Below the pieces are notes generated by a model, which was not told the DNA's origin, did no database searches, and worked only from the letters and a program-made list of their open reading frames with translations. A stretch of 64,000 bases of DNA from Paracoccaceae bacterium. Lineage in GTDB: Bacteria; Pseudomonadota; Alphaproteobacteria; Rhodobacterales; Rhodobacteraceae. The DNA is taken from contig JBFHMM010000001.1 of assembly GCA_041594355.1 (NCBI GenBank), forward strand, positions 5,872-69,871, written 5' to 3'. Both the position numbers and the translations under genes were made by a program. Within the stretch, counting starts at the first letter, position 1. Every line of letters starts with the position of its first letter. Shown in pieces: positions 36,579 through 56,578 of this stretch.

Positions 36579-39500
36579 TTATTCGGTCTCCCGGCGCACC
36601 CGGTAGTGTATTCCGGCGGCAATCGGCCCATCGATCCGGGTCGGCGGGCCGGTGCGCCAGGCGATTTCAAGGCTGTCGATGCTGGCCGCCTGCCCCAGCC
36701 CGAAATGCACCCGCGGCGCGTCAAAGGACATGAATCCGCCGCCCGACTGCACCTCGCGGGTCTGGGTCCGGCCACCCGCGTAGGTGATCGTCAGCCGCGC
36801 GCCGATGCCATCGCGGTTGCCGGCCATATCCTCCAGCGAGACGGTGATCGATTTGGCCGTAGTGCCGTTGGCGGCCGTGTTCACGAAAGCCGCCAGCGGG
36901 CCGTTGACCGTATGGGTCACCAGATCCAGGTCGCCGTCGTTGTCGATGTCGAACGCGGTGGCGGCGGCGGTCATCAGGTAATCCTCGAGCCCGAAGGGAC
37001 CCGACATTTCCACAAAGCCGCCCTGGCCGTCGTTGTGGAAGAACAGGTTCGACGGGCTGACCTCGTTGGGGACCCAGGTGCCGTTGACCACATAAACGTC
37101 GAGCCAGCCGTCGTTGTCGAAATCGGCGATCTTCGTGTCCCAGCTCCAGCCACCGATCTCGAGCCCGCGTGGCCCGGCGGTGTCCGTGAAAGGCGCGGCG
37201 GGGTCATCGCGTTCCAGCAAGACGTTCGATCGCAGGACCTGCGGAATCGCGGCCTGCGATTCCGCCCCCGTGATCGCGCGGGGCGGCGCGAAATGGATAT
37301 CGCAATAGGCGCGCGGAATCACCTGATCGGCGGCGATCAGCTTGCACAGGGCCGGATCGCGGCGCTGGATCGCCAGATCCTTGACCAGCATCGCCTTGCA
37401 TTCCGCACCGTATCGTCCGCTCAGATCGGCACAGCGCCCGGCATAGGTCGGGTCGAAATTATTGCCCGCCTTGTACCAGCGCTTGATCGCCATGTTGGTT
37501 TCACAGGCCGCCTTGTCACCGGCATCGGCGATGGTGTCGCAATAGCGCTCCAGCGGCTGCATCTTCAGCGTCTCCGACACCCCCGAAGACCGCCCCGCGA
37601 TCTGGGCCAGATAGACCTCGGGCACCCCGTCGTTGAACAGGTCCGCGGATTTCACCGCCATCGTGGTGGTGGTCGTATGCGGGATCAGCCCGTCGCCATG
37701 GGTGATGGCCCGAAGATTGCCCTGCCCGTCTCCGACATAGAAATAATCCGGGATCTCAAAATCATTGCCGATCACCATGTCGGCGGCGCCGTCCAGATCC
37801 AGATCGCTGAACAGCACCGACAGGGTCTCGCCCGGGATGCCCGGCAGATCGGCAAAGACCGACCCGTCCAGCGGCGTGCCCTTGCTCAACAGCAGCCGGT
37901 TGCGCGATTCCTCTCCCGGCACCCGCCGGTACCAGCCCGCCGCCCAATTGCCGAGCGCGGCGTCGAGGAACCCGTCGCCGTTCACATCATCAAAGGCCAG
38001 CGCCAGGCTGAGCACGGCATTGTCCCTGTTGGGCACCGGCTGTGGGGTCGGGTCCAACACGCCCTCGCGGTTCCACAGCACGTAATTACCCTGCAGGTAG
38101 CTGGCCAGGAACAGATCCGGCCAGCCGTCGCGGTTCAGATCGTTGAGCGCGGCGTTGAACACGGGCAGGCCCGTCAACGGCTCTGATACGGGCGGATCGG
38201 CTGCAAACCGGCCCCGGCCATCGTTGCGATAGACATACAGCCCGCGCTCGGTCGAGGCGACGACCAGATCCAGATCACCGTCGCGGTCGATGTCGCCGGA
38301 GCTCAGGCTGCGACCCTCCCAGAACGGCGGCCACATGTCACGCATGGTGAATTCAAGCGGCTTGTCGATCCCCAGTGCGCGCGCCTCGCGGCGCCGGAAC
38401 GGGGTGTCGCCCTCTCCCGAGGGCGGCGCGTGGGGCTGTGCGGTCAGGGTGATCCGGTCCGCATCATCGCTGCGGATCATCGGGCCTTCGATCGTCGTGG
38501 CGTGGGCGGGGCGGAACAGCACCTGCTCGACGCTCAGCAGCAACTCCAGCGCGCGGTCGCTTTGCCAGTGGTGGTAGCGCTGCGCGCCCAGACCGGCGAT
38601 CACCCCCAGGCCGGCCACCGCCAGCGCCAGCAGCAGCGCGGCGCGCAGCGCGATGGTCTGCGCCACGATAAAGAAGGAATAGACACTGAACGACCCCAGC
38701 GTAAACACCAGCGCCATGACAAATCCCGGCTCCAGCCCGGCGGTCATCAGCGCACCGGCGGCCACCACGTCAAAGGCGATCGGCACCGGCAGGAACACCC
38801 CCACCGCGGCCACCACCAGCAGCGCCAGCAGGCCGAACGTCAGCCCCAGCACCGCATCGCCCGGCAGCAGTGTCGCCACCAGAGACCCCAGAAACCCCGC
38901 CAGCAGCATCAGCGGCACGGTCATCCGCACGATGTACCACAGGTTGGCCAGAAACAGCCGCCCCGTCGCCAGCATCGCCGTTCCGATGCTTTCGCCGCCT
39001 TCGTCCCTCTGCAGTTCAGCCGCGCTCCACGGCGTCGGCGCCTGCTGATCAGGCGCGGCCACCAGCGCCTCGCCCGGCAGGGTCCGGCAGATCAGCGGCA
39101 CCAGCACCAGGATCAGCAGCAGGCTGAGCGCCACCTTGGTCACCGCCATATAGACCGGCAGCAGGCTGAACAGCATGGTCAGCACCACCACGTTCAGCGT
39201 CGGCGAGGCCATCATCGCCGACAGCGTGGTCTCGGCCCTGAGCCCGCCGGAAAACATGCCGCGCGCAATCGGCGCGGCGCAGTTCACGCAGACTCCCAAT
39301 GGCGCGCCCAGCACCAGCCCCAGCGCCGAATTGGCAAACCGCCCCGAAAAACTGCGCCGCCGCAGAAACGGCACCGCGGTCAGAAAGGCGGCGGCGAAAA
39401 GCACGCCGAACGTCATGCCCTTCTTGTTGGTATTGACCCAGTTCAGGGTCGAATAGAACACCCGTTCCGCCAGCGACATGTCGGCGGTCAGCGCGATCTT

Positions 39501-39674
39501 GGCCTCGAAGCTCAGCGAATCCTCCAGCTGGATGGCCCCCGACATCATCGCCTTTTCATCCAGCGCGGGATAGCGCGAGCTGGTCCAGAACACATAGGCC
39601 AGCCCGGCCACGATCAGCAGCGCCAGCAGAAAGCGTTTTTCAAAATGCGGCTGGATGAATGACTGTTTCTGCAT
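36579..39674 (-). CDS. Permease (ArsP/DUF318-like) fused to FG-GAP beta-propeller and ASPIC/UnbV domain (CRTAC1-like)
   Basis: About 9 hydrophobic segments with GAPLGVCVNCAAP and ASPTLN. Seven DxD/NxDG-type motifs. C-terminal GNRDGIGARL...SGGGFMS...VHFGLG. Confidence 0.85.
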   Translation of the reverse strand: MQKQSFIQPHFEKRFLLALLIVAGLAYVFWTSSRYPALDEKAMMSGAIQLEDSLSFEAKIALTADMSLAERVFYSTLNWVNTNKKGMTFGVLFAAAFLTAVPFLRRRSFSGRFANSALGLVLGAPLGVCVNCAAPIARGMFSGGLRAETTLSAMMASPTLNVVVLTMLFSLLPVYMAVTKVALSLLLILVLVPLICRTLPGEALVAAPDQQAPTPWSAAELQRDEGGESIGTAMLATGRLFLANLWYIVRMTVPLMLLAGFLGSLVATLLPGDAVLGLTFGLLALLVVAAVGVFLPVPIAFDVVAAGALMTAGLEPGFVMALVFTLGSFSVYSFFIVAQTIALRAALLLALAVAGLGVIAGLGAQRYHHWQSDRALELLLSVEQVLFRPAHATTIEGPMIRSDDADRITLTAQPHAPPSGEGDTPFRRREARALGIDKPLEFTMRDMWPPFWEGRSLSSGDIDRDGDLDLVVASTERGLYVYRNDGRGRFAADPPVSEPLTGLPVFNAALNDLNRDGWPDLFLASYLQGNYVLWNREGVLDPTPQPVPNRDNAVLSLALAFDDVNGDGFLDAALGNWAAGWYRRVPGEESRNRLLLSKGTPLDGSVFADLPGIPGETLSVLFSDLDLDGAADMVIGNDFEIPDYFYVGDGQGNLRAITHGDGLIPHTTTTTMAVKSADLFNDGVPEVYLAQIAGRSSGVSETLKMQPLERYCDTIADAGDKAACETNMAIKRWYKAGNNFDPTYAGRCADLSGRYGAECKAMLVKDLAIQRRDPALCKLIAADQVIPRAYCDIHFAPPRAITGAESQAAIPQVLRSNVLLERDDPAAPFTDTAGPRGLEIGGWSWDTKIADFDNDGWLDVYVVNGTWVPNEVSPSNLFFHNDGQGGFVEMSGPFGLEDYLMTAAATAFDIDNDGDLDLVTHTVNGPLAAFVNTAANGTTAKSITVSLEDMAGNRDGIGARLTITYAGGRTQTREVQSGGGFMSFDAPRVHFGLGQAASIDSLEIAWRTGPPTRIDGPIAAGIHYRVRRETE

Positions 39675-39697
39675 GGGCGGTGTCCCCTGTAGGCAGG

Positions 39698-40351
39698 TCA
39701 ACTGTTCCACTTGATACCAGTGACTGCAAGCGTTGGCGCAAAGGCCTCGTAGATGCGTTGCCGCTGCGCCGTCGTCACCTGGTCCTTGCGGATCAGCGGG
39801 GTTTTGGAAAACTCGGACTTGGCCCGTGTGTGCAGCTGGAACTCCGCGATGCCGCGCCTGTCCAGGATCCGGGGCAGCGCCCATTTCAGCCGGTCATAGC
39901 GCAGCACCCGGTTGACCATCAGCACCCGGCGTCCGTTTTCCATCCGGCTGTACTTGTAGTGGTCGACGGGAAAATTCCCGGCCTCGCAATAGCTCTCCCA
40001 GCTGGCGTCATAGGCACCATCGGGATTGTGCAGCGCGGAATTGCGCAGCATGTGAAAATGGCTGATGCATTTCTCGACCGGTTCGCGTTCGACGCAGAAC
40101 CGGAACATCGCGCCAAAGCGCTCTGCGCCCAGCAGATCCGCGATCTCCTGCGCGGGCATATGGTTGTAATAGATCGTCTTGCCGCCCGCGTCGGCAAAGT
40201 TGCGTGCCCGGTGCCCCGGTACCGGCGGCAGGATCGGGGTGACGATGGCCTCCTCCTCGAGACGCCCCGACAGGTCCACCTCGATGCTGGTGCCCGCGGT
40301 CTTGGTCGTCTTGATGAAGATGAAATTATGCCTGAAGGACACAATCGCCAT
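39698..40351 (-). CDS. Sulfotransferase (family 2-like)
   Basis: IVSFRHNFIFIKTTKTAGTSIEV, YNH, EREPVEKCISHF, LRYDRL. Paralog of 10889..11755. Confidence 0.82.
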   Translation of the reverse strand: MAIVSFRHNFIFIKTTKTAGTSIEVDLSGRLEEEAIVTPILPPVPGHRARNFADAGGKTIYYNHMPAQEIADLLGAERFGAMFRFCVEREPVEKCISHFHMLRNSALHNPDGAYDASWESYCEAGNFPVDHYKYSRMENGRRVLMVNRVLRYDRLKWALPRILDRRGIAEFQLHTRAKSEFSKTPLIRKDQVTTAQRQRIYEAFAPTLAVTGIKWNS

Positions 40352-40426
40352 AACTGGACTTCCCTGCCCGAAGGCGCATCCGCCGCCTGCCCGTCACCTA
40401 TCTGTCAACCGGGCCAGCGCAACAGG

Positions 40427-40455
40427 AAAAAGGCCCCGGAACCCCGGGGCCTTTC
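40427..40455 (-). terminator. Rho-independent terminator downstream of the fibre gene
   Basis: Minus strand reads GAAAGGCCCCGG-loop-CCGGGGCCTTTTT, about 23 nt after the stop at 40478. Confidence 0.85.
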
Positions 40456-40477
40456 GATTGCTGGCGGATCGCGTCGA

Positions 40478-41629
40478 TCAGCCTTTTTCGATCTCGGCTT
40501 CCAGAACCTTGATGCGGTCGTTCAGCTGCTCAATGTAGATATGCGCGTGTTCCAGTTCGTTGAGCATGCGCAGCATCTTCTCGTTGACATTGATCGCGAG
40601 CGACGGGCCGGTCGGTCCAACCGCCGGCAGGTGCTTGTCGGCCCACATCTTCTCGGCGTGTTCCTCGATCGAGGGCACGGTGTAGACCTCGGGGTCGAAC
40701 ACCGCGTCACAGGGATCGGCCACGGTACAGGCGCCGCCGCCACCGGTGGTGATCAGGCTGCCGGTGATGGTCAGGTTGCCTGCCGGGGTCAGCAGGAATT
40801 CGGGCGCGCTGGTTCCCGCAGAGAGGCGGAGCGAATCGTTGTTGGTGATGGTCCAGATCTGGTTGTTGGTCTGGGCGGTGTTGATCATCGCGATCCGCAC
40901 CGGGCCGCTGTCCTGAACGATCACGTCGTCACCGGCATTCGGCGCGTCCTGATTCGTGCCGCCGACGCGGATGTGCAGCGGCGCGTTAGGGGCATCAGTT
41001 CCAAACCCAATGTTATTGTTGGCGGCGACAAACAGCGCGTTGTCGTCCGCACCCGGCTTGATCTTGAACGGCAGTTCGCTGCCGTTGGTGACGTCGCGGA
41101 CAAAGAAGTTGGTTTCGTTCGCGGCGATGTCAAAGGTCTGGGCGGTAAAGCCGGCCGAGCCGTTCTGTTCCAGCCGCAGGGTCGGGCTGTCGCCATCGGC
41201 GACATGCAGCTCGACAACCGGACTGGCGGTACCGATCCCGATATTGCCGCTGGAATTGATCCGCAGCGCGTTGGCGCCGGCGCCGGCATCGACGCGGAAC
41301 GGCTGGTTCCCGGCATCCGCATCCTCGATCGCCAGGTATTCGGAACCGCCGTTGGTGCTGTCGTTGGCGACGATACGCCAGTCCCGGGTCGGGAAGCTGC
41401 TGGAGCTCGAGGTGTCCTGGAAATGGATCCGCAGGTTGTTTTCCTTCAGCCGCAGCGTGTCCGAGCCAAAGCTTTCGCTGGAGGTACAGTCGAACCCGGT
41501 ACAGGTGCTGCCCTGCACGATCAGGTCGGTGGCAAAGACCTGCGCGGCGCTGGCGCCCTGGGCGGCAAAGCCGGTCAGCGCGGTGGTCAAACCCAGCATG
41601 GCCAGGCGGGTGTGGGTTTTTCTCATCAT
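40478..41629 (-). CDS. Secreted beta-rich fibre/adhesin-like protein with C-terminal chaperone-like coiled-coil
   Basis: Sec signal (ASA-AQ). Internal repeats ending GNIGIGTASP/NNIGFGTDAP. C-terminal DAVF..Y..PSIEE...HLP...LNELE...YIEQL. The longer ORF-track N-terminus overlaps the upstream gene. Confidence 0.75.
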   Translation of the reverse strand: MMRKTHTRLAMLGLTTALTGFAAQGASAAQVFATDLIVQGSTCTGFDCTSSESFGSDTLRLKENNLRIHFQDTSSSSSFPTRDWRIVANDSTNGGSEYLAIEDADAGNQPFRVDAGAGANALRINSSGNIGIGTASPVVELHVADGDSPTLRLEQNGSAGFTAQTFDIAANETNFFVRDVTNGSELPFKIKPGADDNALFVAANNNIGFGTDAPNAPLHIRVGGTNQDAPNAGDDVIVQDSGPVRIAMINTAQTNNQIWTITNNDSLRLSAGTSAPEFLLTPAGNLTITGSLITTGGGGACTVADPCDAVFDPEVYTVPSIEEHAEKMWADKHLPAVGPTGPSLAINVNEKMLRMLNELEHAHIYIEQLNDRIKVLEAEIEKG

Positions 41630-41661
41630 GATATACTCTTTCCCTGTCGTGTTCCGTGAGG

Positions 41662-42123
41662 TCATTGATCGCCGTCTTCGTTCAGCGTTTCTGGCGTGAC
41701 GATCACGCCGCGCGACACCTGAAAGGAGCCGGTCTTGTAAAAGGGTTTGAAGGCCGATCCCGAAGCATCGCTGCCCCGGCCATTGTCGATCTGGTTGACG
41801 ACCTCGGCCTTCTCGCTGGTCGCCGCCGTCAGCTCGTAGGTATAGACGCCGTCCAGAATGCCCTGTCCGGACAACTGGAACACCGGTGTGCCGGCCCCGG
41901 CCTGAACATTGGTGATCTCGCCATTGGGCATCCGGATGCGCAGCTCCGCATTGCTCAGATCGCCCCAGTTCTCGAACCAGAAGGCGTTGGTGTTGTGCTG
42001 GGGCACCGGTTCTGCCGCCGTCACCGGGGCCGCGCCCCCCAGAACAAGAGCCAAGGCAAGCGACGCGATCATGATCGGGCCAGCAATCAAAGCCCCCATC
42101 CCGCACCGAAAACCTTCAAACAT
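41662..42123 (-). CDS. Small secreted protein, partner of the fibre gene
   Basis: Signal peptide (VTA-AE); beta-rich mature domain with DGVYTYELTAA and GSFQVSRG. Ends 32 nt before the fibre start. Start is 42123 or 42099. Confidence 0.7.
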   Translation of the reverse strand: MFEGFRCGMGALIAGPIMIASLALALVLGGAAPVTAAEPVPQHNTNAFWFENWGDLSNAELRIRMPNGEITNVQAGAGTPVFQLSGQGILDGVYTYELTAATSEKAEVVNQIDNGRGSDASGSAFKPFYKTGSFQVSRGVIVTPETLNEDGDQ

Positions 42124-42189
42124 TCGAATGTAACTCCCTGAAGCGAATGCATCTCTCGTAAAATCGCGGCACGCCCGCGCAGAGGCGGC

Positions 42190-42326
42190 CACTTGGTCGG
42201 CACTATACAGATTTCATTTCAAAAATCATGTTATTTTGGCAACTTTACGGCAGTGATGTTGCCCCGAACCGACAAGATCCGCCAATTGTTTGCCGTTACG
42301 GCAACAATAGACACTTTCCGGCGCGT
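42190..42326 (-). promoter_or_regulatory. AT-rich putative promoter region for the partner/fibre genes
   Basis: Markedly AT-rich intergenic stretch (atttcatttcaaaaatcatgttattttgg) in a GC-rich context. No specific box assigned. Confidence 0.4.
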
Positions 42327-43523
42327 TCAGCGCTCGATTGCCGCCCATTTCGCCTCGGCCCGGGTCTGGGCCTCGGCCAGCTGGCCGGGCGTCAGCCGGG
42401 GCCGCAGCAACTCTGCCGCCACCCGTGCCTCGGGATCGCCTGCCGACACCGCGAGGCTCAGCCACATGTAGCCCAGCACGTAATCCTGCGGCACGCCCTC
42501 GCCCTTGACGTACATCAGCCCCAGGTTGGTCATGGCGCCGCGCAGCCCCTTTCGAGCCGCGCGGGTGAACCAGATGGCCGCGTCCCGCGCGCCACCTTCC
42601 CGCAGCGCCAGACCGCCGGCCAGGTACTGCGCCAGCGGGTCGCCGGCGCGGGCCGCCCGCAGGGTATCGGCGCGCCAGCCCGGATCGTCGGCGGCGGGCC
42701 GGCTCAGCCGGGGATCAAAGCCATAGCTCAGCGCGGCGGCACTGTCGGGGCGCACCAACCCGGCGGCCTGCCGGTACAGCGCGGCGGCGCGGGCATCGTC
42801 CTGCGCCACGCCAAAACCGTTTTCATAAAGCACGCCCAGGTTGCGCACCGCCTCGGCCAGCCCGGACTGGGCCGCCTGTTCGAACAGGTTGGCGGCGGCG
42901 GCGTAATCCTGCGGCACCCCGTCGCCGCGCACATAGAGCAGCCCCAGGTTGTTCAGCGCCCTTGGATGACCCGTGGCGCCCGCCCTCTCGTACAGCGCCC
43001 GCGCCGCTGCATAATCCTGCGCCACGCCGGTGCCTTCCTGATACAGCACCCCCAGGCTGACCGCCGCCTCCACGTGACCCGCCTCGGCCGCGCGTTGATA
43101 CAGCGCCGCCGCAGCCGCCGGGTCGGGCGCGCCCGCCACCGGGGTGTCCAGCGCCCGCGCCAGGTTGAACAGGTAGTCCGGAACACCGCTTTGCGCCGCC
43201 TGCCGCAGCCAGTGCAGCGCCTGCACCTGGTCCGTCTCCGCGCTGTCTCCGGTCAGCCGGCGAACGTGATACAGCCCCAGCAGGTTCTGCGCCGCCGCCT
43301 GCCCCTGCTCGGCGGCCCGCAGCAGCCAGGGGCGGGCAGCGGCAAAGTTCTGTGGCACCCCCTGCCCCTGATCGAAACGCAGCGCCAGCTGGTACTGGGC
43401 CTCGGCGTCATCGGCCTCGGCCCGAGCACGCAGGGCCCCGAGATCGCCGTCCTGCGCCGAAACCGATGCCCCCGCCAGCAGCGCCACCAGCAGGACCGGG
43501 CCCATGAGCTGCCTCAGGGTCAT
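42327..43523 (-). CDS. Exported Sel1-repeat protein
   Basis: Signal peptide; repeated A..NLG..Y..G.GV.QD...A..Y..AA; terminal YMWLSLA. Confidence 0.92.
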   Translation of the reverse strand: MTLRQLMGPVLLVALLAGASVSAQDGDLGALRARAEADDAEAQYQLALRFDQGQGVPQNFAAARPWLLRAAEQGQAAAQNLLGLYHVRRLTGDSAETDQVQALHWLRQAAQSGVPDYLFNLARALDTPVAGAPDPAAAAALYQRAAEAGHVEAAVSLGVLYQEGTGVAQDYAAARALYERAGATGHPRALNNLGLLYVRGDGVPQDYAAAANLFEQAAQSGLAEAVRNLGVLYENGFGVAQDDARAAALYRQAAGLVRPDSAAALSYGFDPRLSRPAADDPGWRADTLRAARAGDPLAQYLAGGLALREGGARDAAIWFTRAARKGLRGAMTNLGLMYVKGEGVPQDYVLGYMWLSLAVSAGDPEARVAAELLRPRLTPGQLAEAQTRAEAKWAAIER

Positions 43524-45127
43524 TCCGATGCCGTCCCGGCCTGCGCCGAACCGGTCTCGAAATAGGTCCGCGCGCCGGCCTGCGCCTGCGCCACCTGTTC
43601 CGCTGTCATCAACTGCGAGATCACCTCGCGCATCTCAGCGGCATTGCTCAGCCCGTGGGTGGCGGCGACATTGAACCAGACATGCGCCTGAACGTAATCC
43701 TGTTCGACCGGCCCGCCTTCGGCGTAAAGCTGTCCCATCCGGAACTGGGCAAAGCTGTCGCCAGCCTGCGCGGCCTGCTGCAGCAACGCTACCGCCTGCG
43801 CGCCGCGCGCACCGTCATCAAGCGTCAGATAGAGATCGCCCAGCCGGCCCTGCGCCTGTGTGATCCCCGCCGCCGCCTGCGTCTCCAGCCAGCTCAACGC
43901 CTCGGCATCCCCGGCCTGCGCCGCCGCGTCAACCCAGGGCGCGGCCTCCTGCGGGGCGATCAGATCGTCGATCCGGCCCTGTGCCGCCAGCAGTCCCAGC
44001 CGCGCAGCGGCCACTTCGGCCACGTCCGGCCCCATGTCCAGGGCGCGGCGGTACTCCCGCACCGCCTGCCGCAGGTTCTGCGGCGTGCCGCGGCCTTCTT
44101 CCTGAAACGCCGCGACCACCAGCACCGCGCGTGGCAGGTTGCGGTCGGCAGCCCGCTGGTACCAGTCGAACGCGGTGGCATCATCGGCCGGCACCCCGGT
44201 GCCCGTGGCATAGGCGAAGCCGAGGTTGGTCATCGCCCCGGCATCGCCCGCCGCCGCCGCCGCCGTCAGCCAGCGCAGCGCCTCCTCGCCGTTCTGCGCC
44301 ACCCCGTCGCCGTGCAGGTATTTGGTACCCAGCATCCGCTGCGCCAGCGGATGGCCCGCCTCCGCGGCACGGCGGAACCAGGCCTGGGCCTGGGCCGGGT
44401 TCCTGGTCGTGCCATTGCCCGCATCCAGATTCAGCCCCAGGGAATACTGCGCCGCCGCCACCCCGGCCGCCGCGGCGCTCTCCATCCATTTCAGCGCCCG
44501 GGGGCCGTCCTCGTCGGTGCCCAGACCCTGGGCATAGGCCTGGCTGAGTGCGTATTGCGCCTCGCCATGCTGCTGTTTGGCGGCGGCCAGGAACCAGGTA
44601 AAGGCGGTTTCCTCGCTGCGCGGCACACCGCGGCCCAAACGATAGGCGACCCCCAGCAGGAACTGCGCCTCGGCGTCGCCCTGACTGGCGGCGCGCTGCA
44701 ACAGGTTGGCGGCGCGGGCCTGATCCTCGCCCACCCCTTCGCCGGCCATGTACATCCGCGCCAGCAGGGTGGCGGCAGCGACATGATCCTCCTCCACCGC
44801 CTCGGCCAGCCAGCGCACCGCCTGCCCCGGATCGCGGGGACCGCCGCGGCCTTCCTGCAGGATCCGGCCATAACGATACTTGGCATTCGGCGTGCCGCCC
44901 GGCGCCAGCTGCGCCAGCCCCTCGCGGGCGGTCACGTAATCGCCGGACCGGTAGGCCGCGACGATATCGGCCATTTCGGGCAGCCGCACCTGCGGCGCAT
45001 CGGCGGCATCCTGATCGACAGGAGTAGCAGTGTCAGAGGGCGCATCCGACGTCTGCGCAGGAATGGGCGCGGCGGTCAGACACAGGACCGCTGCGGCGGC
45101 AAGAGCAGCGGAAAATCGCAGGGACAT
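43520..45127 (-). CDS. Exported Sel1-repeat protein
   Basis: Signal peptide; many AQ..LG..Y..G.G...A..W..AA repeats; terminal HVWFNVAA. Confidence 0.92.
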   Translation of the reverse strand: MSLRFSAALAAAAVLCLTAAPIPAQTSDAPSDTATPVDQDAADAPQVRLPEMADIVAAYRSGDYVTAREGLAQLAPGGTPNAKYRYGRILQEGRGGPRDPGQAVRWLAEAVEEDHVAAATLLARMYMAGEGVGEDQARAANLLQRAASQGDAEAQFLLGVAYRLGRGVPRSEETAFTWFLAAAKQQHGEAQYALSQAYAQGLGTDEDGPRALKWMESAAAAGVAAAQYSLGLNLDAGNGTTRNPAQAQAWFRRAAEAGHPLAQRMLGTKYLHGDGVAQNGEEALRWLTAAAAAGDAGAMTNLGFAYATGTGVPADDATAFDWYQRAADRNLPRAVLVVAAFQEEGRGTPQNLRQAVREYRRALDMGPDVAEVAAARLGLLAAQGRIDDLIAPQEAAPWVDAAAQAGDAEALSWLETQAAAGITQAQGRLGDLYLTLDDGARGAQAVALLQQAAQAGDSFAQFRMGQLYAEGGPVEQDYVQAHVWFNVAATHGLSNAAEMREVISQLMTAEQVAQAQAGARTYFETGSAQAGTASE

Positions 45128-47408: not shown

Positions 47409-47412
47409 GCGG

Positions 47413-48021
47413 ATGCGGCGCGGCCACCACCCCGATGCGGGCCTGACCCTAATCGAGCTGATCGTCGCCATGGCGCTCTTCGCGCTGGTCGCCGCCATGG
47501 GGCTGCAGGTGCTGAACGGCATGCTGCGCGCCCGCGACCGGCTGGTCGCCCGCTCCGATGACACCGGCGCGCTCAGCCTGACGCTGGCGCTGCTACGCCA
47601 GGATCTGCAGGCCACAGTGCCGCTGGGGTTTTCCGCCCCCGGCGTCCCGCCAGCGCCGCCGCTGACCACCACCCCCGGCCCCCGGCTGGCGCTATCGCTG
47701 GCCGGGCAATCCGGCCCCGGCATTCCCGAACACGCCGGGTTCCACCGGGCGATCTGGCGCTACGACCGCACGACCCAGCAACTGACCCGGCAGATCTGGC
47801 CCAGCCTCAGCCCCGCCACCGCATCGCAGCTGCAGCCCGCCACCCCCGTCCTGACCGGCGTGCAGGGGCTGGAGATCCGCCTGTTCCGCCCCGATCAGGG
47901 CTGGCTCGACTGGCGCGACCTGCCGGTGGATGTGATCCGCACCGACCTGCCCGCCGCCATCGAGGTCACGCTGGACACTGTCGCTTTCGGCCGGGTGCGG
48001 CTGGTAGAGACCCTATGGTAA
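47413..48021 (+). CDS. gspJ: T2SS minor pseudopilin J
   Basis: AGLTLIELIVAMALF, LRQDL, LPAAIEVTL...GRV. Confidence 0.88.
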   Translation: MRRGHHPDAGLTLIELIVAMALFALVAAMGLQVLNGMLRARDRLVARSDDTGALSLTLALLRQDLQATVPLGFSAPGVPPAPPLTTTPGPRLALSLAGQSGPGIPEHAGFHRAIWRYDRTTQQLTRQIWPSLSPATASQLQPATPVLTGVQGLEIRLFRPDQGWLDWRDLPVDVIRTDLPAAIEVTLDTVAFGRVRLVETLW

Positions 48022-48953: not shown

Positions 48954-50161
48954 GCGCCCGGCGTGCAAGAAACCGCAGCGAGGCGGAACCCGGGACCGCC
49001 TTTGCCCGGATCGGCGCTGGCCCGGCCGCAAATCCGGCCCCCGGTCAGGTGGTGCTGGTGCCCGGCGCACATGTGCCGGTGATCGCGCTGGATCTGCCCG
49101 CCGGCGTGCGCGGGGTTCAACGCGAGCGCATTGCCACCCGTGCCCTACGCGACCTGACCGGGCTGGACCCGGCCCGGATCGACATACGGCCCCTCCCCGG
49201 CCCCCGGCCGCAGGCCTGGAGCCGGGTGCTGGTGACCGATCCGGCCCGGCTGGCCGATTGGCGCGCCCGCAGTGCGGGCGCCCGCGCGCTGCTGCCCGAT
49301 TACCTGTCGCTGCCCGCCGCCGAGGGGCTCTGGACCCTGCAGCACCGGGCACCGGAAACCGACGACGCAGATGGCGAAATCCTCGCCCGGCTGGGCACCG
49401 ACGATGGCTTTACCATCGAAACCACCGCCGCCCGGCTGATGCTGGCCGCCGCGCTGCGCGAGGCGCCGCCGCGCGCGGTGCTGTGGATCGGCACACCGCT
49501 TCCGGATCTGGCGGCGCTGTTCGAGGCCGCCGAGCTGCCACAGGTCGACCGGGCCGAGGACGCCACCCGGCACGGGCTGGCCCCGCCATCGGTGCTGGGC
49601 CACGGCGAGGAAAGCTGTGATCTGCGGCAGGATCCCGGACAGGAACGCGACCACCTGCGGCGGCGGCTGCTGCCGTGGCGCTGGTCGGCGCTGGCGGCGA
49701 CGGCGGCGCTGGCTGTCTGGTGCGCGGCGCTGGCGCTGGAAACCCGCCAGCTGCGCGAGCGCACCGCCACCGTCACCGCGCAAACGCTGGAGATGACCCG
49801 GAAGTATTTTATCCCCGCCGGTCCGATCCTGGATATCCGCGCCCAGATCGGCGCCGAAATGGCCAGCCGACAGGCCCGGCTGGGTGTGGCCCGCGACCAG
49901 CGCTCAGGCCTGGACCTGATGAACCGCGCCGCAACCCTGATCGACCGGGCCGAGGCCACCGGCGTCGATGATCTGTCCTATACCGCCGACGGCGGGCTGG
50001 TGGCGCGGCTGCGGGTGCCCGATTACGCCGCCCAGGACCGGCTGGCCGAGACCCTGTCAGCGGGCGGGCTGGCGGTCGAGGTGATCGAATCGGGGCTCAG
50101 CGAGGATGGGGCCGAGGTTCGCGTCGAGATCGCCCTGGCCCTGGCGGAGGACGGCCAATGA
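48950..50161 (+). CDS. gspL: T2SS inner-membrane platform protein L
   Basis: Position K-L-M; LVPG, LLPDYLSLP, DLRQ motif before a single TM segment. Confidence 0.78.
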   Translation: MSARRARNRSEAEPGTAFARIGAGPAANPAPGQVVLVPGAHVPVIALDLPAGVRGVQRERIATRALRDLTGLDPARIDIRPLPGPRPQAWSRVLVTDPARLADWRARSAGARALLPDYLSLPAAEGLWTLQHRAPETDDADGEILARLGTDDGFTIETTAARLMLAAALREAPPRAVLWIGTPLPDLAALFEAAELPQVDRAEDATRHGLAPPSVLGHGEESCDLRQDPGQERDHLRRRLLPWRWSALAATAALAVWCAALALETRQLRERTATVTAQTLEMTRKYFIPAGPILDIRAQIGAEMASRQARLGVARDQRSGLDLMNRAATLIDRAEATGVDDLSYTADGGLVARLRVPDYAAQDRLAETLSAGGLAVEVIESGLSEDGAEVRVEIALALAEDGQ

Positions 50162-50652
50162 CCGACCGGTTGATCTTTGCCCTGCTGGGCCTGACGGGCC
50201 GGGAACGGCTGCTGCTGGCACTGCTGTGCCTGGTGGCGTTGCCGCTGGCGCTGTGGCTGGGCATGGTCGAGCCGCTGCAAGCCCGCCGTGACGCCGCCCG
50301 CAGCGATCTGGCGGCGGCCCGGATCCTGCAGCATTGGGTCAGTGTCCAAGCGGCGGACAGCGCCCGGATCGGCTCCGGCACCACCCCCGCAGAAACCCCG
50401 CCCATCGGCGTTTCCGGCCTTGAACAGAGCCTGATTTCCGCCGGGCTGCGCGATCACGTCAGCGATCTCAGCCGCCGCTCGGGCGACCGGATCGAGCTGC
50501 GTTTCGATGCCGTGCCGTTCTCGGATCTGGGTATCTGGATCAATCGCACCGCCCGCGGCTGGGGGTACGAGATGACCGCCTTTCGCATCCAGCAGGGACC
50601 GGAACCCGGTCTGGCCGAAGCGCGCTTCAGCCTCGCGCCCCGCCAGCCCTGA
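50158..50652 (+). CDS. gspM: T2SS protein M
   Basis: LTGRERLLL + TM + EPL; VPFSDL..W. Confidence 0.85.
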   Translation: MTDRLIFALLGLTGRERLLLALLCLVALPLALWLGMVEPLQARRDAARSDLAAARILQHWVSVQAADSARIGSGTTPAETPPIGVSGLEQSLISAGLRDHVSDLSRRSGDRIELRFDAVPFSDLGIWINRTARGWGYEMTAFRIQQGPEPGLAEARFSLAPRQP

Positions 50653-50670
50653 ACGTGGTCCCGGAGGCCC

Positions 50671-51186
50671 CTAGCCCTGCCCGGACAACTGCGCGTCCAG
50701 CTGCGACTTACGGGCCTTGATGGTGCCGATCTGGTCCAGCTCGGGATGGGTTTTCAAAACCTCGCCCAGAGCTGACTGGGCCGATTTCAGATAGGCCGCG
50801 CCACCCGCCCCGCCGCCGGCCATGCCCAGTTCGTGCTCGGCAGTGCCCTGAACCGCCAGCGCGGCGCTGCGGAAGGTGCCCTTCTGGCTGGTCGCCAGCC
50901 CGCGCGCCTGTTCGGCGGCCTGGGCATACTGGCCATTGCGCAGCAGCGCATGGGCATAGTCCAACCGGAACCGCGCCTCATAGCCGCCCGCCCCGTCCAG
51001 CAGCTGCGCGTAACCGCGCACCGCCTTGTCGTACTTGCCATCCTCCAGCGCCTCGCGGGCGGACAGGTATTGCCGGCGCATGGCGCTGTTGTCGCCGCTG
51101 GTCTCTGTGCAGGCGGTCAGCAGGACGCTGGCGCCAATGCACAGAACACCGGCCGCGACCGGGATCCGAATTCCATGTGTTTTCAT
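50671..51186 (-). CDS. TPR-like lipoprotein inside the T2SS cluster
   Basis: Lipobox LTAC; helical repeats (YLSAREALEDGKYDKA, YAHALLRNGQYAQA). Confidence 0.75.
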   Translation of the reverse strand: MKTHGIRIPVAAGVLCIGASVLLTACTETSGDNSAMRRQYLSAREALEDGKYDKAVRGYAQLLDGAGGYEARFRLDYAHALLRNGQYAQAAEQARGLATSQKGTFRSAALAVQGTAEHELGMAGGGAGGAAYLKSAQSALGEVLKTHPELDQIGTIKARKSQLDAQLSGQG

Positions 51187-51744: not shown

Positions 51745-51928
51745 AGCCATATTCCGCCGCAGCGGCGGCACGCAGGCCACAACCCCGCACCCCGCGCATG
51801 CCGGGGCATCATAGCCGTATGCTTTTGCCCGCAACTGGGCTAAACTGCGCTCATAATCAGAGCGGAACGACCCGTGAACCGGGCGGAACAAGACCAAAAG
51901 AAACAAGAAGACAGGCGGATCCACATAG

Positions 51929-53899
51929 ATGACTTGGCTGGCAAGGCTGCACGCCACCCTGATGACGGGTAGGGCGGCAACGGTTCCGGTGCTGATCCTA
52001 ATGGCCCTACTGGCCATCGCTCCCGCCGGGCCGGCGCGGGCCCAGGTCGAACTGGACCTGCGCGATGCCGACCTGCGCAGTTTCGTCACCATCGTCGCCG
52101 ACGCCACCGGGCGCGGCTTTGTGCTGGACCCGCAGGTGCGCGGCACGGTCACCGTGCTGGCCCCCGACGGGCTGCCGTCCGATGCGCTCTACGAAGTCTT
52201 CCTGAACGTGCTGGAGCTGAACCGGCTGACCGTGGTCGAAGGCCGCGGCGCCGACCGTATCGTGCCGCTGTCCTCGGCCCGCGAACTGTCCGGGGCCAGC
52301 GGCACCGTAGAGCTGGATGGCGGCTTCGAGACCCGGGTGATCGAAGTGCGCAACGCGCCGCTGCAGGAGGTGGTCGAGGTGATCCGCCCGCTGTTGCCTT
52401 CCGAGGCCGTGCTGACCGCGATCCCCCGCGCCCGCCTGCTGGTGCTGTCGGACCGGGGCGAGAATTTCCGCCGTATCGAGGCTCTGATCCGGCGGCTGGA
52501 CCAGCCCCGCGCGCAGTTAGTCACCATGGTGCCGCTCTATAACGCGCGCGCCGATGACGTCTATCAGGTGGTGCAGTCGCTCAACATCATCCCCCCGGAC
52601 GCCTCGGTCACCGTCGATCGCCGGTCGAACGCGCTGGTGGTGGCAGGTTCGGCCAGCCTGGCCGACCAGATCCGGGTGCTGGTCGAACGGCTCGATACCC
52701 GCGATGTCGGCATCGCATCGGCGGTGGAGACGTTGAAATACGCCGACGCCACCGCGCTGGCCGACGTGATCCTGCGCAGCTTTACCGGCCAGCAGCAGGT
52801 TTCCGGCAGCGAGGAAACCATCTCTATCGTGCCCGATCTGGCCACCAATTCGCTGTTGATCACCGCGCCCGCCGACAAGATCCAGAACATCCTCGCGATG
52901 ACCCGCCACCTGGACCGCCGCCCGAAACAGGTGCTGGTCGAGGCGGTGGTCTTCGAGATGTCGGTCGAAGGGTTCTCCGATCTCACCGTGCAGTTCGGCG
53001 CCGTGGTCAACAACGCCATCATCGGCGGGGTCGAATTCGACCTGGCCGGCCGCCCCACCCTGACCAGCCTGCTGACGGCGGCGGCCAACGGCGAGCCGAT
53101 CTCGCCCGGGACTGGCGGCACCATCGGCGGCGGCACCCAGAACGGCGATGACGCCATCGCGGGCTTTCTGTCGGCCGTGGCCACAACCAATTCCACCCGT
53201 CTGCTGGCAACCCCTTCGATCATGACCCTGAACAACCAGGAAGCCGAGATCGTCGTCGCCCAGAACGTGCCCTTTGTCACCGGATCCTATTCCACCGTCG
53301 GCGACACCAACAATCCCGAGAACCCGTTCCAGACCATCGAGCGCGAAAATGTGGGTCTGACATTGCGCGTCACGCCGCAGGTGACCGGCGACGACACCGT
53401 GCGCATGACCCTGGAACAAGAGGTGTCGCGGCTGACCAACAACACCGCCGCCTCGGGCGGCGAGATCACCCAGCGCCGCGCCCTGACCTCGACCGTTCTG
53501 GTGCGTGACGGCAATGTGGTGATGCTGGGCGGGCTGCTCGAGGATACCTCGGTCTCGCAATCCCAGCGGGTGCCGACGATTTCGGAAATCCCGGTGGTCG
53601 GCGCGCTGTTTCGCGGCAAGAACGCCCGCGAAGACCAGCGCATCCTGCTGGTGATGCTGCGCCCCCGCGTGGTCAGCAACGACGCCGAGGCCAAGCGGCT
53701 GGCGGATCAGGCCGCCCGCGACGCCCGCCGCGCCACCCGCGCGCTGCAGCCCGACAACCGTGATCAATTTCCCAAAACACCCAGCGGGCTGTTCCCCTAT
53801 GCTGATGGCGATCTGAACCTGCCGTTTGATTCGGGCTTTATCGACGATGTCGCACAAAGCAGAACCCTCCCGCCGCTCCCGCCCCGGCTTGACTTCTGA
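51929..53899 (+). CDS. gspD: T2SS secretin
   Basis: DADLRSFV..VA..TG..FVLDPQVRGTVTV, QVLVEAVVFE, LATPSIMTLNNQEA, VGLTLRVTPQ, IPVVGALF. Confidence 0.96.
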   Translation: MTWLARLHATLMTGRAATVPVLILMALLAIAPAGPARAQVELDLRDADLRSFVTIVADATGRGFVLDPQVRGTVTVLAPDGLPSDALYEVFLNVLELNRLTVVEGRGADRIVPLSSARELSGASGTVELDGGFETRVIEVRNAPLQEVVEVIRPLLPSEAVLTAIPRARLLVLSDRGENFRRIEALIRRLDQPRAQLVTMVPLYNARADDVYQVVQSLNIIPPDASVTVDRRSNALVVAGSASLADQIRVLVERLDTRDVGIASAVETLKYADATALADVILRSFTGQQQVSGSEETISIVPDLATNSLLITAPADKIQNILAMTRHLDRRPKQVLVEAVVFEMSVEGFSDLTVQFGAVVNNAIIGGVEFDLAGRPTLTSLLTAAANGEPISPGTGGTIGGGTQNGDDAIAGFLSAVATTNSTRLLATPSIMTLNNQEAEIVVAQNVPFVTGSYSTVGDTNNPENPFQTIERENVGLTLRVTPQVTGDDTVRMTLEQEVSRLTNNTAASGGEITQRRALTSTVLVRDGNVVMLGGLLEDTSVSQSQRVPTISEIPVVGALFRGKNAREDQRILLVMLRPRVVSNDAEAKRLADQAARDARRATRALQPDNRDQFPKTPSGLFPYADGDLNLPFDSGFIDDVAQSRTLPPLPPRLDF

Positions 53900-55361
53900 A
53901 CCGCTCCCCGGCGGCGAGGCCCCCCGCCTGCCCTTTGCCTTTGCCCGCGACCAGCAGGTGCTGCTCGACGGTCCCCGGCTGATTGCCGGGCCCGCCGCCA
54001 CGGCCCTGGGCCTGCGCGAGGCGCGCCGCAGGGCCGGGCAGCCGCTGCAGCTGATCGAAGAACCGCAGGACCTGTTCGACCTGGCCCTGACCCGGCTCTA
54101 TCAAAGCGATCCGACGGATCAGACCGCCCCCGAGCTGACCTTCGATCTGGAAGACAGCGCCAGCACGACAGGCCACCGCGACCTGCTGGACGAGGTCGAG
54201 GACGCCCCGGTGATCGAGATGGTCAACCAGCTGCTGCGCCGGGCGGTTCAGGCCGGCGCCTCGGACCTGCATGTGGAACCGCATGAAACCGGGCTGCGGG
54301 TCCGGATGCGCCGCGACGGGTTCCTGCAGACGGTGATGGACCGTCACGACGTCCCCGTGCGCCGCATCCTGTCACGGCTCAAGGTGATGGCAGGGCTGGA
54401 TATCGCCGAAACCCGGCTGCCGCAGGACGGGCGCATTCCGCTGCGCATGGGCGGGCGGCAGATCGACACGCGGGTGTCCACCATGCCAGGCAGCTACGGC
54501 GAACGCATCGTGCTGCGGATCCTCGACCGCTCCACCGGGCTGGTGCCGCTGGACCAGCTGGGCCTGAAGCCGGAACAGATCGACATGCTGGAACGGCTCT
54601 CGGCGCTGCCCAACGGCATCATCCTGGCCACCGGGCCAACCGGCTCGGGCAAGACCACGACGCTTTATTCGCTGCTGAAACTGTCGGACCTGCACCAGCG
54701 CAACATCGTCACCGTCGAGGACCCGATCGAATATGACCTGCCGCAGGCCTCGCAGACCCAGATCAACGCCGAAATCGGCATGACCTTTGCCGCCGGGCTG
54801 CGCGCCACCCTGCGCCAGGACCCCGATGTGATTCTGGTGGGCGAGGTCCGAGACGCGGAAACCGCCACCACCGCCGCGCAGGCGGCGCTGACCGGGCACC
54901 TGGTGTTCTCCTCGCTGCACGCCAATGGGTCGGTGGGGGCGATCACCCGGTTGCGCGACCTGGGCCTGGACGATTTCCTGATCGCCTCGACCCTGCGGGC
55001 GGTGATCGCCCAGCGGCTGCTGCGCCGGCTCTGCCCCGATTGCAAGACATCGCACCCCCCCACCCCGGCGGAACAGGCGCATTTCGCCCGGCTGGGCGTG
55101 CCCGCCCCGGCACAGGTCCACGCCCCCGAAGGCTGCGACGCCTGCAGCGGCACCGGCTACCGCAGCCGGGTCGGCATCTTTGAAATGATCGAGGTCGACG
55201 AGACCCTGCGCAGCGCCGTCGATCGCGGGGCCTCCGAGGCCGAACTGAAGGGGCTGGCGCTGTCCCAGTCCGACACGCTGATGGGTCAGGGACTGGCCCA
55301 GGTAGCCAATGGCGCCACCAGCCTGGCCGAAACCCTGCGCGTGGTCGGGGACAGCGTGTGA
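53847..55361 (+). CDS. gspE: T2SS ATPase
   Basis: ASDLHVEP, PQDGRI, Walker A GPTGSGKTT, TVEDPIE, LRQDPDVILVGEVRD, Zn motif CPDC...CDAC. Start approximate. Confidence 0.96.
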   Translation: MSHKAEPSRRSRPGLTSEPLPGGEAPRLPFAFARDQQVLLDGPRLIAGPAATALGLREARRRAGQPLQLIEEPQDLFDLALTRLYQSDPTDQTAPELTFDLEDSASTTGHRDLLDEVEDAPVIEMVNQLLRRAVQAGASDLHVEPHETGLRVRMRRDGFLQTVMDRHDVPVRRILSRLKVMAGLDIAETRLPQDGRIPLRMGGRQIDTRVSTMPGSYGERIVLRILDRSTGLVPLDQLGLKPEQIDMLERLSALPNGIILATGPTGSGKTTTLYSLLKLSDLHQRNIVTVEDPIEYDLPQASQTQINAEIGMTFAAGLRATLRQDPDVILVGEVRDAETATTAAQAALTGHLVFSSLHANGSVGAITRLRDLGLDDFLIASTLRAVIAQRLLRRLCPDCKTSHPPTPAEQAHFARLGVPAPAQVHAPEGCDACSGTGYRSRVGIFEMIEVDETLRSAVDRGASEAELKGLALSQSDTLMGQGLAQVANGATSLAETLRVVGDSV

Positions 55362-56578
55362 AAGCTTTTGCCTATACCGCCTTCACCGCCGAGGGGCGGC
55401 GCAAATCCGGCAGCCTGATTGCCGAAAGCGAGGCCGACGCCACCCGCCAGCTCAAATCCCGGGGCCTGTTTGTCTCCGATCTGCGCGCGCGCAGCAGTCG
55501 GCGGACATCGGGACGCGGCAAAGGGTTTTCCCGCCGCCACCGGCTGAACGCCGATCTGCAGGCGGTGTTCACCCGCCAGATGGCGGTTCTGCTCGGCGCC
55601 GGGCTGACCAGCGAATACGCGCTCGAAGCGGTGCGCTCCGCAGGCAGCAGCCCGGCGATGGAAGGGCTGGCCACCACCGCCAAGGCGGCGCTGCTGGACG
55701 GCCAGCCGCTGTCCGAAGCGCTGGAGGGCAGCGGCGCGGGCTTCGCTCCCTATTACATCGCGTCGATCCGGGCGGCCGAGAATTCCGGTGACGTCGGCGA
55801 GGTCTTTGCCCGGCTCGCCGATCATCTCGAAACCACGGGCATCGACCGCGCACAGGTCTCGACCGCGCTGATGTACCCGATGTTCGTGGCCGGCGTGTCG
55901 GTGCTGGTCTGCATCATCCTGATGACCACCGTGGCCCCGGAAATCGTGTTGATGTTCGAAGGCTCCGGTCGCCCGATGCCGCCCCTGACGGTGGCCATGC
56001 TCACGGTCAGCGACTGGATGTCGGCCAACTGGGTGCAGCTGCTCGGCGCTCTGACAGCAGCCTTGGTGACCTATCTGCTGGCCATGCGCGTGCAGACATT
56101 CCGCGACCGACGCGACGGGCTGCTGCTGCGGCTGCCCCTGGTGGGCAGCCTGATGCGGCAATCGGCAGCGGTGCAGTATCTGCGCACGCTTGCGCTGGTG
56201 CTGACCAGCCGCCACGCTGTGGTGGGCGCGGTCGACAGCGCTGCGGGCGTCCTGACCGTGACCCGGTTCCGGCGCGAAGCCGCCGCGGTATCGGACGTGG
56301 TGCAGGCCGGCGCACGGCTGTCCGACGCGGTCGCCGAACTCACGATCATCCCCCCCGTAGTGCGCCAGCTGATGAGCGTCGGCGAACAATCGGCCAACCT
56401 GGCCCGCATGACCGAACGCAGCGCCATACTGGTGGAAAACAACCTGCGCAATGAACGCAAACGCATCGCCGCATTGTTAGAGCCGGTTCTGATGATGGTC
56501 GTGGGCGGTGGTGTTCTGGTGATCGTGCTGTCGGTGCTGCTGCCGATCTTTGATCTGCAGTTCATCGTGACAGGCTGA
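55358..56578 (+). CDS. gspF: T2SS inner-membrane protein F
   Basis: F.Y.A, FTRQMAVLL.AG, AE.SG, LMYP, GEQS, LLEP...LLPIF. Confidence 0.94.
   Translation: MKAFAYTAFTAEGRRKSGSLIAESEADATRQLKSRGLFVSDLRARSSRRTSGRGKGFSRRHRLNADLQAVFTRQMAVLLGAGLTSEYALEAVRSAGSSPAMEGLATTAKAALLDGQPLSEALEGSGAGFAPYYIASIRAAENSGDVGEVFARLADHLETTGIDRAQVSTALMYPMFVAGVSVLVCIILMTTVAPEIVLMFEGSGRPMPPLTVAMLTVSDWMSANWVQLLGALTAALVTYLLAMRVQTFRDRRDGLLLRLPLVGSLMRQSAAVQYLRTLALVLTSRHAVVGAVDSAAGVLTVTRFRREAAAVSDVVQAGARLSDAVAELTIIPPVVRQLMSVGEQSANLARMTERSAILVENNLRNERKRIAALLEPVLMMVVGGGVLVIVLSVLLPIFDLQFIVTG

Follow-up and report, generated by a model that had tools for sequence, protein, structure and literature searches.

A type II secretion gene cluster linked to a short fibre module in a Rhodobacterales genome

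We analysed a 64,000-nucleotide stretch, hereafter the window, of contig JBFHMM010000001.1 from a Paracoccaceae bacterium (order Rhodobacterales); the source genome is a metagenome-assembled genome (MAG) that is 82% complete. A 20-kb block of the window (36579-56578) carries a complete type II secretion system (T2SS) on its + arm and a fibre module on a divergent − arm. On balance, we favour the view that the block is one copy of a conserved alphaproteobacterial cassette that couples a distinct T2SS lineage to a short trimeric fibre module; with similarly modest confidence, the linkage of the genes leads us to suppose that this T2SS exports the fibre.

Genes of the block

Every gene that a first-pass annotation of the block had named is present, in the order and on the strand it gave, as judged from Pfam and NCBIfam profiles and from reading of the sequence; the list overlooked one conserved gene, which encodes a tetratricopeptide repeat (TPR)-like lipoprotein at 50671-51186. 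No hydrolase or toxin gene lies within the block, as that annotation had also remarked. The features are as follows.

36579-39674 (−): fusion of a permease (ArsP_1/DUF318 type) with FG-GAP and UnbV_ASPIC domains, 1031 amino acids (aa) (Pfam, hydropathy)
39698-40351 (−): sulfotransferase-like protein, cytoplasmic, 217 aa (K-T-A-G-T-S motif, language-model look-up)
40427-40451 (−): intrinsic terminator 3' of the fibre gene, with an 8-bp GC stem, a 4-nt loop and a T run (sequence and fold)
40478-41629 (−): fibre, exported, 383 aa, no Pfam family (profile match to mosaic adhesive trimer (MAT) fibres, trimer prediction)
41662-42099 (−; alternative start 42123): small exported protein, 145 aa (immunoglobulin (Ig)/FN3-like model, gene fusion)
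42327-43523 (−): periplasmic Sel1-repeat protein, 398 aa, 6 repeats, signal peptide (Pfam Sel1 4.7e-46)
43520-45127/45175 (−; likely start 45127): periplasmic Sel1-repeat protein, 535-551 aa, 8 repeats, signal peptide (Pfam Sel1 1.8e-66)
45207-45968 (−): prepilin peptidase GspO (A24) (Pfam A24_N_bact 9.4e-23, Peptidase_A24 8.6e-17)
46073-46540 (+): GspG, major pseudopilin (TIGR01710, 171.9 bits vs cut-off 88.85)
46525-47037 (+): GspH, minor pseudopilin (recognised, below the NCBIfam equivalog cut-off)
47034-47408 (+): GspI, minor pseudopilin (recognised, below the NCBIfam equivalog cut-off)
47413-48021 (+): GspJ, minor pseudopilin (recognised, below the NCBIfam equivalog cut-off)
48015-48953 (+): GspK, minor pseudopilin (176.8 bits vs cut-off 130)
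48950-50161 (+): GspL, platform (80.3 bits vs cut-off 65)
50158-50652 (+): GspM, platform (T2SSM 3e-20)
50671-51186 (−): TPR-like lipoprotein, lipobox L-L-T-A-C (orthologues, weak TPR matches)
~51220/51277-51744 (+): GspC, short (T2SSC, 26.3 bits vs cut-off 27, weak)
51929-53899 (+): GspD, secretin (TIGR02517, 416.8 bits vs 351.35; Pfam Secretin, Secretin_N three times, GspD N0)
53826-55361 (+, open frame): GspE, ATPase (T2SSE 1.4e-126; NCBIfam 534.5 vs 630.25, below cut-off)
55358-56578 (+): GspF, platform (T2SSF 3.8e-43; NCBIfam 305 vs 424, below cut-off)

The hallmark components of a T2SS found here are a secretin with N0 and N1-N3 domains, the pseudopilins G to K together with an A24 peptidase, the platform proteins C, F, L and M, and the ATPase E. 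Given that GspE, GspF, GspH, GspI and GspJ score below their NCBIfam equivalog cut-offs, we regard the system as complete but divergent. GspC consists of a membrane helix and an HR domain only, with no PDZ or coiled-coil domain, and the divergent genes gspO and gspG are separated by a 104-bp spacer. The GspG precursor has an unusually long leader (46073-46132, +), with ~20 residues preceding the G-F-S-L-L-E cleavage motif.

The lipoprotein gene overlooked before is on the strand opposite to gspM and gspC, in the gap between the two. Its product is 43% identical to a Pseudoruegeria counterpart (L002:383-919, E 2e-35) and matches TPR_Slam and TPR_19 below cut-off; the Prokaryotic Genome Annotation Pipeline (PGAP) names the Roseovarius orthologue a tetratricopeptide repeat protein. 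The gene is kept in 12 class-A cassettes and also in the fibre-less sister T2SS of genus g17, and its presence in such fibre-less clusters argues that it is part of the machine. It is perhaps a candidate pilotin of the secretin. TPR-lipoprotein pilotins serve the secretins of type IV pili (PilF/PilW/Tgl); the protein of the block resembles them as a small TPR-like lipoprotein whose gene adjoins gspC-gspD and is conserved with the T2SS lineage with or without the fibre module, and differs in having no family match above cut-off. To our knowledge, the known T2SS pilotins (GspS/AspS) are not TPR proteins.

The fibre and its neighbours on the − arm

The fibre has a signal peptide and a disulfide loop, its beta-helix comes in three segments with capping loops, and the helical domain at its C-terminus ends in a coiled coil. 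Its family has no name and is very large: a search matched more than 5866 clusters, typically at 45-60% identity, from Rhodobacterales, Maricaulis/Hyphomonadaceae, Rhizobiaceae, several gammaproteobacterial groups, Acidobacteriota, Saprospiraceae, Opitutales and an Acidimicrobiia MAG. A 25-member profile of this family, compared with solved PDB chains, matches the MAT fibres of Bdellovibrio only; the best match is Bd2133 (8OND; E 5.9e-12, with the beta-helix matched twice), three other MAT chains match more weakly, and the matches span the beta-helix and the capping loops. The MAT family was described in Bdellovibrio bacteriovorus (for example Bd2133, PDB 8OND), with a capping-loop motif V-G-G/N-x-x-x-P-x-x-x-L and a ~130-aa beta-rich N-terminal domain after the signal peptide (Caulton et al. 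2024, PMC10769870). Copies of the capping-loop motif stand at residues ~128-140 and 206-217 of the fibre.

As a monomer, the fibre is modelled poorly by AlphaFold2 (AF2), with a predicted local distance difference test (pLDDT) score of 65 and a predicted template-modelling (pTM) score of 0.28, and a Foldseek search of this model against the PDB gave nothing at E <= 0.001, the weak top rows being T4 gp34, the Mu fibre and Bd2133. When residues 52-383 are modelled in triplicate, the prediction is a single intertwined body in which the chains make ~1000 contacts with one another and form a coiled coil at the C-terminus. The homotrimer reached an ipSAE of 0.92 in all three runs versus 0.00 for the best of three controls (pLDDT 90), a mark that in the calibration of the tool is reached by 20 of 30 solved homo-pairs and by 1 of 23 single chains; the runs agree in at least 93% of contacts. 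The earlier reading of the protein as an oligomeric fibre is backed both by homology to solved trimeric MAT fibres and by the prediction of an intertwined homotrimer.

Peptidase_S74 has no Pfam match in the fibre even at E 10; the family profile does not match the S74 part of solved chains, and the S-D-x-x-x-K motif is absent from the fibre; and in an alignment of 25 homologues the C-D-x-V-F at the junction is invariant, whereas no Ser/Lys pair is conserved. We therefore file the protein as a short, non-S74, MAT-like fibre; the solved MAT chains cover C-terminal parts only. Two fibre homologues are labelled 'Peptidase S74 domain-containing' in UniRef. An invariant motif, D-T-L/I-R-L/M-K-E-N-N, lies near the N-terminus of the fibre (residues ~57-67); it presumably resembles the S-D-x-R-L-K-x-N-I start of S74 chaperone domains.

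The 145-aa small protein had been proposed as a partner of the fibre, and a gene fusion now bears this out. Three longer fibre homologues, two of them from Acidobacteria-type contigs, bear an N-terminal extension; a hidden Markov model (HMM) of 40 stand-alone small proteins, run against 120 fibre homologues, matches only these three extensions, with nearly the whole model covered (P0117, E 2.4e-10; P0108, 4.8e-8; P0045, 6.6e-5). We thus read the small protein as the detached N-terminal domain of the fused homologues. Its family counts 1280 representatives, nearly all of them stand-alone proteins of 130-190 aa. The AF2 model is an Ig/FN3-like beta-sandwich (pLDDT 81), for which a fold search gave weak FN3/Ig matches (E ~1e-2); a sequence search of the PDB gave no match. 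Two giant proteins, P0124 (5670 aa) and P0220 (5101 aa), hold 14-15 partial copies of the small-protein domain (profile positions ~25-80), which suggests that the domain is related to the repeat units of giant adhesins.

Both Sel1 proteins score far above the Pfam cut-off of 30.7 bits (154 bits for the 6-repeat protein and 218.6 for the 8-repeat protein), and each has orthologues in 34 fibre loci. The fusion protein (FG-GAP_3, 1.3e-33, 115.9 bits in 5 stretches; UnbV_ASPIC, 2.9e-18, 66 bits; ArsP_1, 1.9e-12) has, by hydropathy, an inner-membrane permease part of ~10-12 transmembrane helices with a C-V-N-C motif; its open frame extends to 39884, with a likely start at 39674, and orthologues of 57-71% identity occur in 32 fibre loci. 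CRTAC1-like proteins share the order of FG-GAP repeats followed by UnbV_ASPIC, whereas the N-terminal fusion to an ArsP_1 permease sets the present protein apart. Of all neighbours of the fibre, the FG-GAP/ASPIC propeller is conserved most widely, lying within ~5 kb of it in 50 of the 76 loci that are at least 8 kb long, across phyla; the stand-alone propellers that adjoin the fibre in other phyla carry signal peptides and are read as exported.

For the 217-aa protein, which the first-pass annotation called a sulfotransferase, the name agrees with a motif and a feature look-up and lacks a family match: the protein has a K-T-A-G-T-S motif like the 3'-phosphoadenosine 5'-phosphosulfate (PAPS) loop, and by Atlas language-model features 93 of its 100 nearest clusters are Sulfotransfer_2 (score 0.97, taken as a lead only), while Pfam, NCBIfam and PDB sequence searches gave no match. 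Pairwise BLAST against neighbouring weak Sulfotransfer_2 proteins was insignificant, the likeness being confined to the K-x-A-G-S/T-S loop. Orthologues of 53-59% identity occur in three other loci (L001, L020 and L057). Among the Rhodobacterales cassettes, the slot between the fibre and fusion genes is empty in 8 loci and filled in 11; of the 34 open reading frames (ORFs) scanned in these slots, Pfam assigned six to Sulfotransfer_3, four to Sulfotransfer_2, three to Sulfotransfer_1 and one each to GSCFA, glycosyltransferase family GT1, a methyltransferase and an acyl-activating family. Sulfotransferase genes also lie directly 3' of the fibre gene in Arenicella and in an Acidobacteria contig. 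The sulfotransferases that recur inside the cassette fit the link to a sulfated polysaccharide that had been proposed for the block.

Conservation and phylogeny of the cassette

We searched 83 fibre loci with the proteins of the window (tblastn; the fusion was counted within a 10-kb flank). In 19 Rhodobacterales loci, the gsp genes, gspO, both Sel1 genes, the small-protein gene and the fibre gene occur together, and the fusion is present in 17 of these; carriers include Sulfitobacter sabulilitoris, Mameliella, Ruegeria marina, Antarctobacter, Roseovarius, Tateyamaria and Shimia. In a sample of 401 genomes from the order, spanning 139 genera, the fibre was found in 27 genomes (18 genera) and a GspD above cut-off in 81. 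GspD is present in 26 of the 27 fibre carriers, on the same contig as the fibre in 24 and within ~15 kb of it in ~20.

The order has at least three T2SS classes, and the two other classes are only 24-32% identical. In a GspD tree, all 25 fibre-linked GspDs fall into one clade (SH-like approximate likelihood-ratio test (SH-aLRT) support 99) with no fibre-less member; the clade also holds one GspD that lies 112 kb from its fibre on the same plasmid. Fibre-less sisters (G163, genus g17, G117/G062 and G051) surround this clade within a wider one. In the two genomes with two T2SSs each (G119 and G161), the fibre adjoins the T2SS that belongs to the clade, and a genome with three T2SSs, none in the clade, has no fibre (G168). 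Downstream of gspO in the sister T2SS of g17, we looked for an alternative cargo and found housekeeping genes only. Co-occurrence of the components across genomes had been set beforehand as a test of the proposed system, and it was found at all three levels: synteny, the 26 of 27 carriers, and the single GspD clade.

A second lineage of machine is linked to the same module in Maricaulis. In Maricaulis parjimensis, the gene order runs from a giant Ig-repeat protein through GspE with an MshEN domain, GspF, GspG, pseudopilins, a secretin and a GspK-like protein to the permease-propeller fusion, two Sel1-type proteins, the small protein and the fibre. The linked T2SS is a second, divergent lineage, and three Maricaulis genomes have a canonical GspE elsewhere besides it; the module is thus tied to T2SS-type machines of two lineages with different gene orders. 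An MshEN-type N-terminal domain binds cyclic di-GMP in MshE. The giant protein directly upstream of this second T2SS (L152 9178-18831, −; G401:C12) is 3217 aa long and has 15 Big_12 Ig-like repeats.

In cultured roseobacters, the cassette is found on plasmids. On the 76-kb plasmid pMME07001 of Roseovarius faecimaris (NZ_CP034347.1, L153), it wraps the origin with all helper genes present; five fibre paralogues stand directly beside gspO (542-8788), while the sixth is found between the fusion and the two Sel1 genes (~69.3-70.2 kb). The N-terminal parts of the six paralogues are conserved and their C-terminal parts differ, and a LuxR regulator lies among them; the pattern looks like the tip swapping described for MAT fibres. 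Three further genomes (G161, G282 and G140) have four fibre copies each.

Outside the alphaproteobacteria, the fibre loci have no Sel1 pair and no linked T2SS, and the propeller is still found near the fibre. The distribution accordingly has three layers: the fibre and the propeller, often with sulfotransferases, occur together across phyla; the alphaproteobacteria add a separate small-protein gene, the Sel1 pair and the permease fusion; and Rhodobacterales and Maricaulis further add the T2SS.

A proposed export pathway, its rivals and the flanking genes

We propose the following mechanism. The small protein and the fibre would be expressed from a transcription unit of their own, set off by an AT-rich upstream region and a strong terminator (predicted fold dG -31.4 kcal/mol, z -4.27, 0 of 200 shuffles equally stable), and their signal peptides suggest that both enter the periplasm via Sec. 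There the fibre would fold into an intertwined beta-helical homotrimer, closed by disulfides and by the C-terminal coiled coil, and the small Ig-like protein, to judge by the gene fusion, would dock on its N-terminal end as a detached base domain. From their linkage, the two periplasmic Sel1 proteins may act as assembly or hand-over factors, and so may the periplasmic FG-GAP/ASPIC propeller, which the permease domain would hold on the inner membrane. Once folded, the trimer would be driven by the T2SS through the secretin, GspD, and out to the cell surface, where the fibre would probably serve as an adhesin or recognition fibre associated with a sulfated glycan; these last two steps likewise follow the gene neighbourhood. 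Whether the whole forms an unrecognised surface organelle pathway, in which the T2SS lineage exports a fibre with a detachable base, the Sel1 pair and the propeller are new accessory factors, and the sulfotransferases make the sulfated ligand or decoration, is a more tentative idea, and we think it rather doubtful; if it were right, it would also provide MAT-type fibres in general with an export route.

Several observations weigh against fibre export by this machine. No second T2SS was found in this MAG, which is 82% complete, and of the 26 other fibre carriers in the order sample 24 likewise have just this system, so it may serve other substrates too; for this genome, the term 'dedicated' that the first-pass annotation gave it was too strong. 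The fibre-less sisters (genus g17, G163, G051 and G117) indicate that the machine works without the module; the Litorimonas module lies far from its only GspE; and the fibre family occurs in at least 587 species and, in many phyla, without a linked T2SS, including the presumably single-membraned Acidimicrobiia. As to the analysis itself, the GspD tree comes from a quick IQ-TREE search, the genomes are related and not independent samples, the tree groups were defined by the feature that was then counted, and the high score of the predicted trimer may partly reflect likeness to solved MAT trimers.

The sole T2SS of most carriers, the sister systems without the module and the unlinked family members in other phyla are also what the main rival explanation would predict: a general-purpose T2SS, with a fibre module that is co-inherited on a mobile island or plasmid and whose product reaches the surface by another route. 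The plasmid-borne cassettes of several roseobacters and the patchy distribution (18 of 139 genera) fit it as well. We nonetheless consider co-inheritance unlikely, given that the linkage survives rearrangement (gspC-F is inverted in L104 and in the g17 type), that fibre paralogues in pMME07001 are inserted directly beside gspO, that the Maricaulis module sits on a phylogenetically different T2SS while the canonical one is elsewhere, and that the fibre goes with the same clade in every genome that has two T2SSs. Alternatively, what the T2SS exports might be the small Ig-like protein, or else the FG-GAP/ASPIC propeller in a released form, with the fibre staying in the periplasm or outer membrane as an apparatus part or anchor. 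The small protein is indeed a separate exported polypeptide, and the propeller, itself exported, is the neighbour kept most widely across phyla; however, it is the fibre and not the propeller that has multiplied beside gspO in pMME07001, and the tether of the alphaproteobacterial propeller to a polytopic permease argues against its release. We regard this account as improbable. A last rival takes the fibre gene for what is left of a prophage, tailocin or gene transfer agent, adjacent to the T2SS by accident. In its favour are fold matches, all weak, to the Mu tail fibre and T4 gp34, and the PGAP label 'tail fiber domain-containing protein' on some paralogues; the Sec signal peptide, the lack of phage genes within the block and related loci, and a family that keeps 45-69% identity across several phyla, with the same non-phage surroundings, led us to reject it as hardly credible.

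Parts of such a system are already known, namely T2SS clusters with an adjoining or dedicated substrate, surface adhesins delivered by a T2SS, and MAT fibres. Klebsiella Pul with the pullulanase PulA, Pseudomonas aeruginosa Hxc with LapA, and E. coli T2SS-beta with SslE (YghJ) are T2SSs linked to their cargo. Like these, the block has a complete gsp cluster with an adjoining candidate substrate gene, and in some genomes (G119, G161 and Maricaulis) it is a second T2SS beside a general one; unlike them, its candidate cargo is a trimeric, phage-tail-fibre-like protein and not an enzyme or lipoprotein, its GspC has no PDZ or coiled-coil domain, and its further conserved genes, which have no counterpart in those systems, encode two Sel1 proteins, an Ig-like partner protein, sulfotransferases and a permease fused to a propeller. 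The Vibrio cholerae biofilm matrix proteins RbmA, RbmC and Bap1 depend on a T2SS for secretion and parallel our proposal in broad outline, in that proteins with a structural or adhesive role leave through a T2SS and join an exopolysaccharide, the glycan association being conjectural here; their genes, in contrast, lie with vps genes, they use the general Eps T2SS, and their folds are unrelated. A passage of PMC12802150 names PulA and the T2SS-dependent adhesin InvL.

Compared with MAT fibres, the protein of the block is likewise an exported bacterial (non-phage) protein with a signal peptide, a beta-helix with capping loops and a predicted homotrimer, and some genomes have paralogues with conserved N-terminal and differing C-terminal parts. 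It differs in length (383 aa, versus MAT constructs reaching residues 627-1151; PMC10769870), in its conserved helical, coiled-coil end in place of a lectin or TNF-like tip, in the missing S-D-x-x-x-K S74 motif, in the N-terminal domain split off as a gene of its own, and in its place within a T2SS/Sel1/propeller cassette. In the main text of PMC10769870 the term 'secretion' does not occur, and no surface anchor for MAT fibres is identified there. Literature searches that paired the T2SS with roseobacters, Sel1, MAT fibres or ASPIC proteins, and tail fibres with Rhodobacterales, turned up no paper that describes the cassette; 'type II secretion' in a paper on Phaeobacter phage MD18 refers to the Tad pilus and was set aside. 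The novelty lies in the combination of a MAT-like fibre, linked as the candidate cargo, with a GspD clade of its own and conserved helpers for which studied T2SSs offer no counterpart.

The cassette offers a concrete genetic hypothesis for how MAT-type fibres cross the outer membrane and attach, with one T2SS lineage and three kinds of helper genes. If true, it would also give T2SSs a substrate of a new class, along with accessory components not known before. Given that the carriers are surface-associated marine bacteria (from biofilms, algae and beach sand), it could also explain part of their attachment or cell-cell recognition, and the recurrent sulfotransferases suggest a partnership of the protein with a sulfated glycan, little explored in bacteria. 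Cultured roseobacters, some of them plasmid-bearing, and Maricaulis, in which two T2SSs provide a built-in control, make the hypothesis testable.

Glycan genes lie on both sides of the block, as the first-pass annotation had it, in the form of glycosyltransferases, GDP-mannose dehydratase and Sulfotransfer_3 proteins. The ORFs at 56652-57758 and 35754-36566 were not found conserved with the cassette, so the limits of the block stand as given. The flanking and related features are as follows.

Both flanks of the block: GT2/GT1 fusions, GDP-mannose 4,6-dehydratase and epimerase, two Sulfotransfer_3 proteins (Pfam cut-off), GSCFA, hexapeptide acyltransferase
16641-19542 (+): GDP-mannose 4,6-dehydratase near a second NAD-dependent epimerase/dehydratase (18604-19542), with one unassigned frame between
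34666-35757 (−): GSCFA-family gene, just outside the block
L031 11217-12323 and L059 ~13712-14616: GSCFA-family genes in other loci

The dehydratase/epimerase pair suggests a GDP-fucose-type sugar in the flanking polysaccharide locus, which also holds many ORFs of 240-1076 aa without a Pfam family. Genes of the GSCFA family also adjoin the fibre modules of Ruegeria marina and of a Maricaulaceae genome. A 666-aa open frame (39659-41659, +), antisense to the fibre and sulfotransferase-like genes and with no family match, is most likely an artefact of high GC content. For the region 40400-43600 no RNA dataset was listed, and the DNA datasets that contain it are marine and beach-sand metagenomes.

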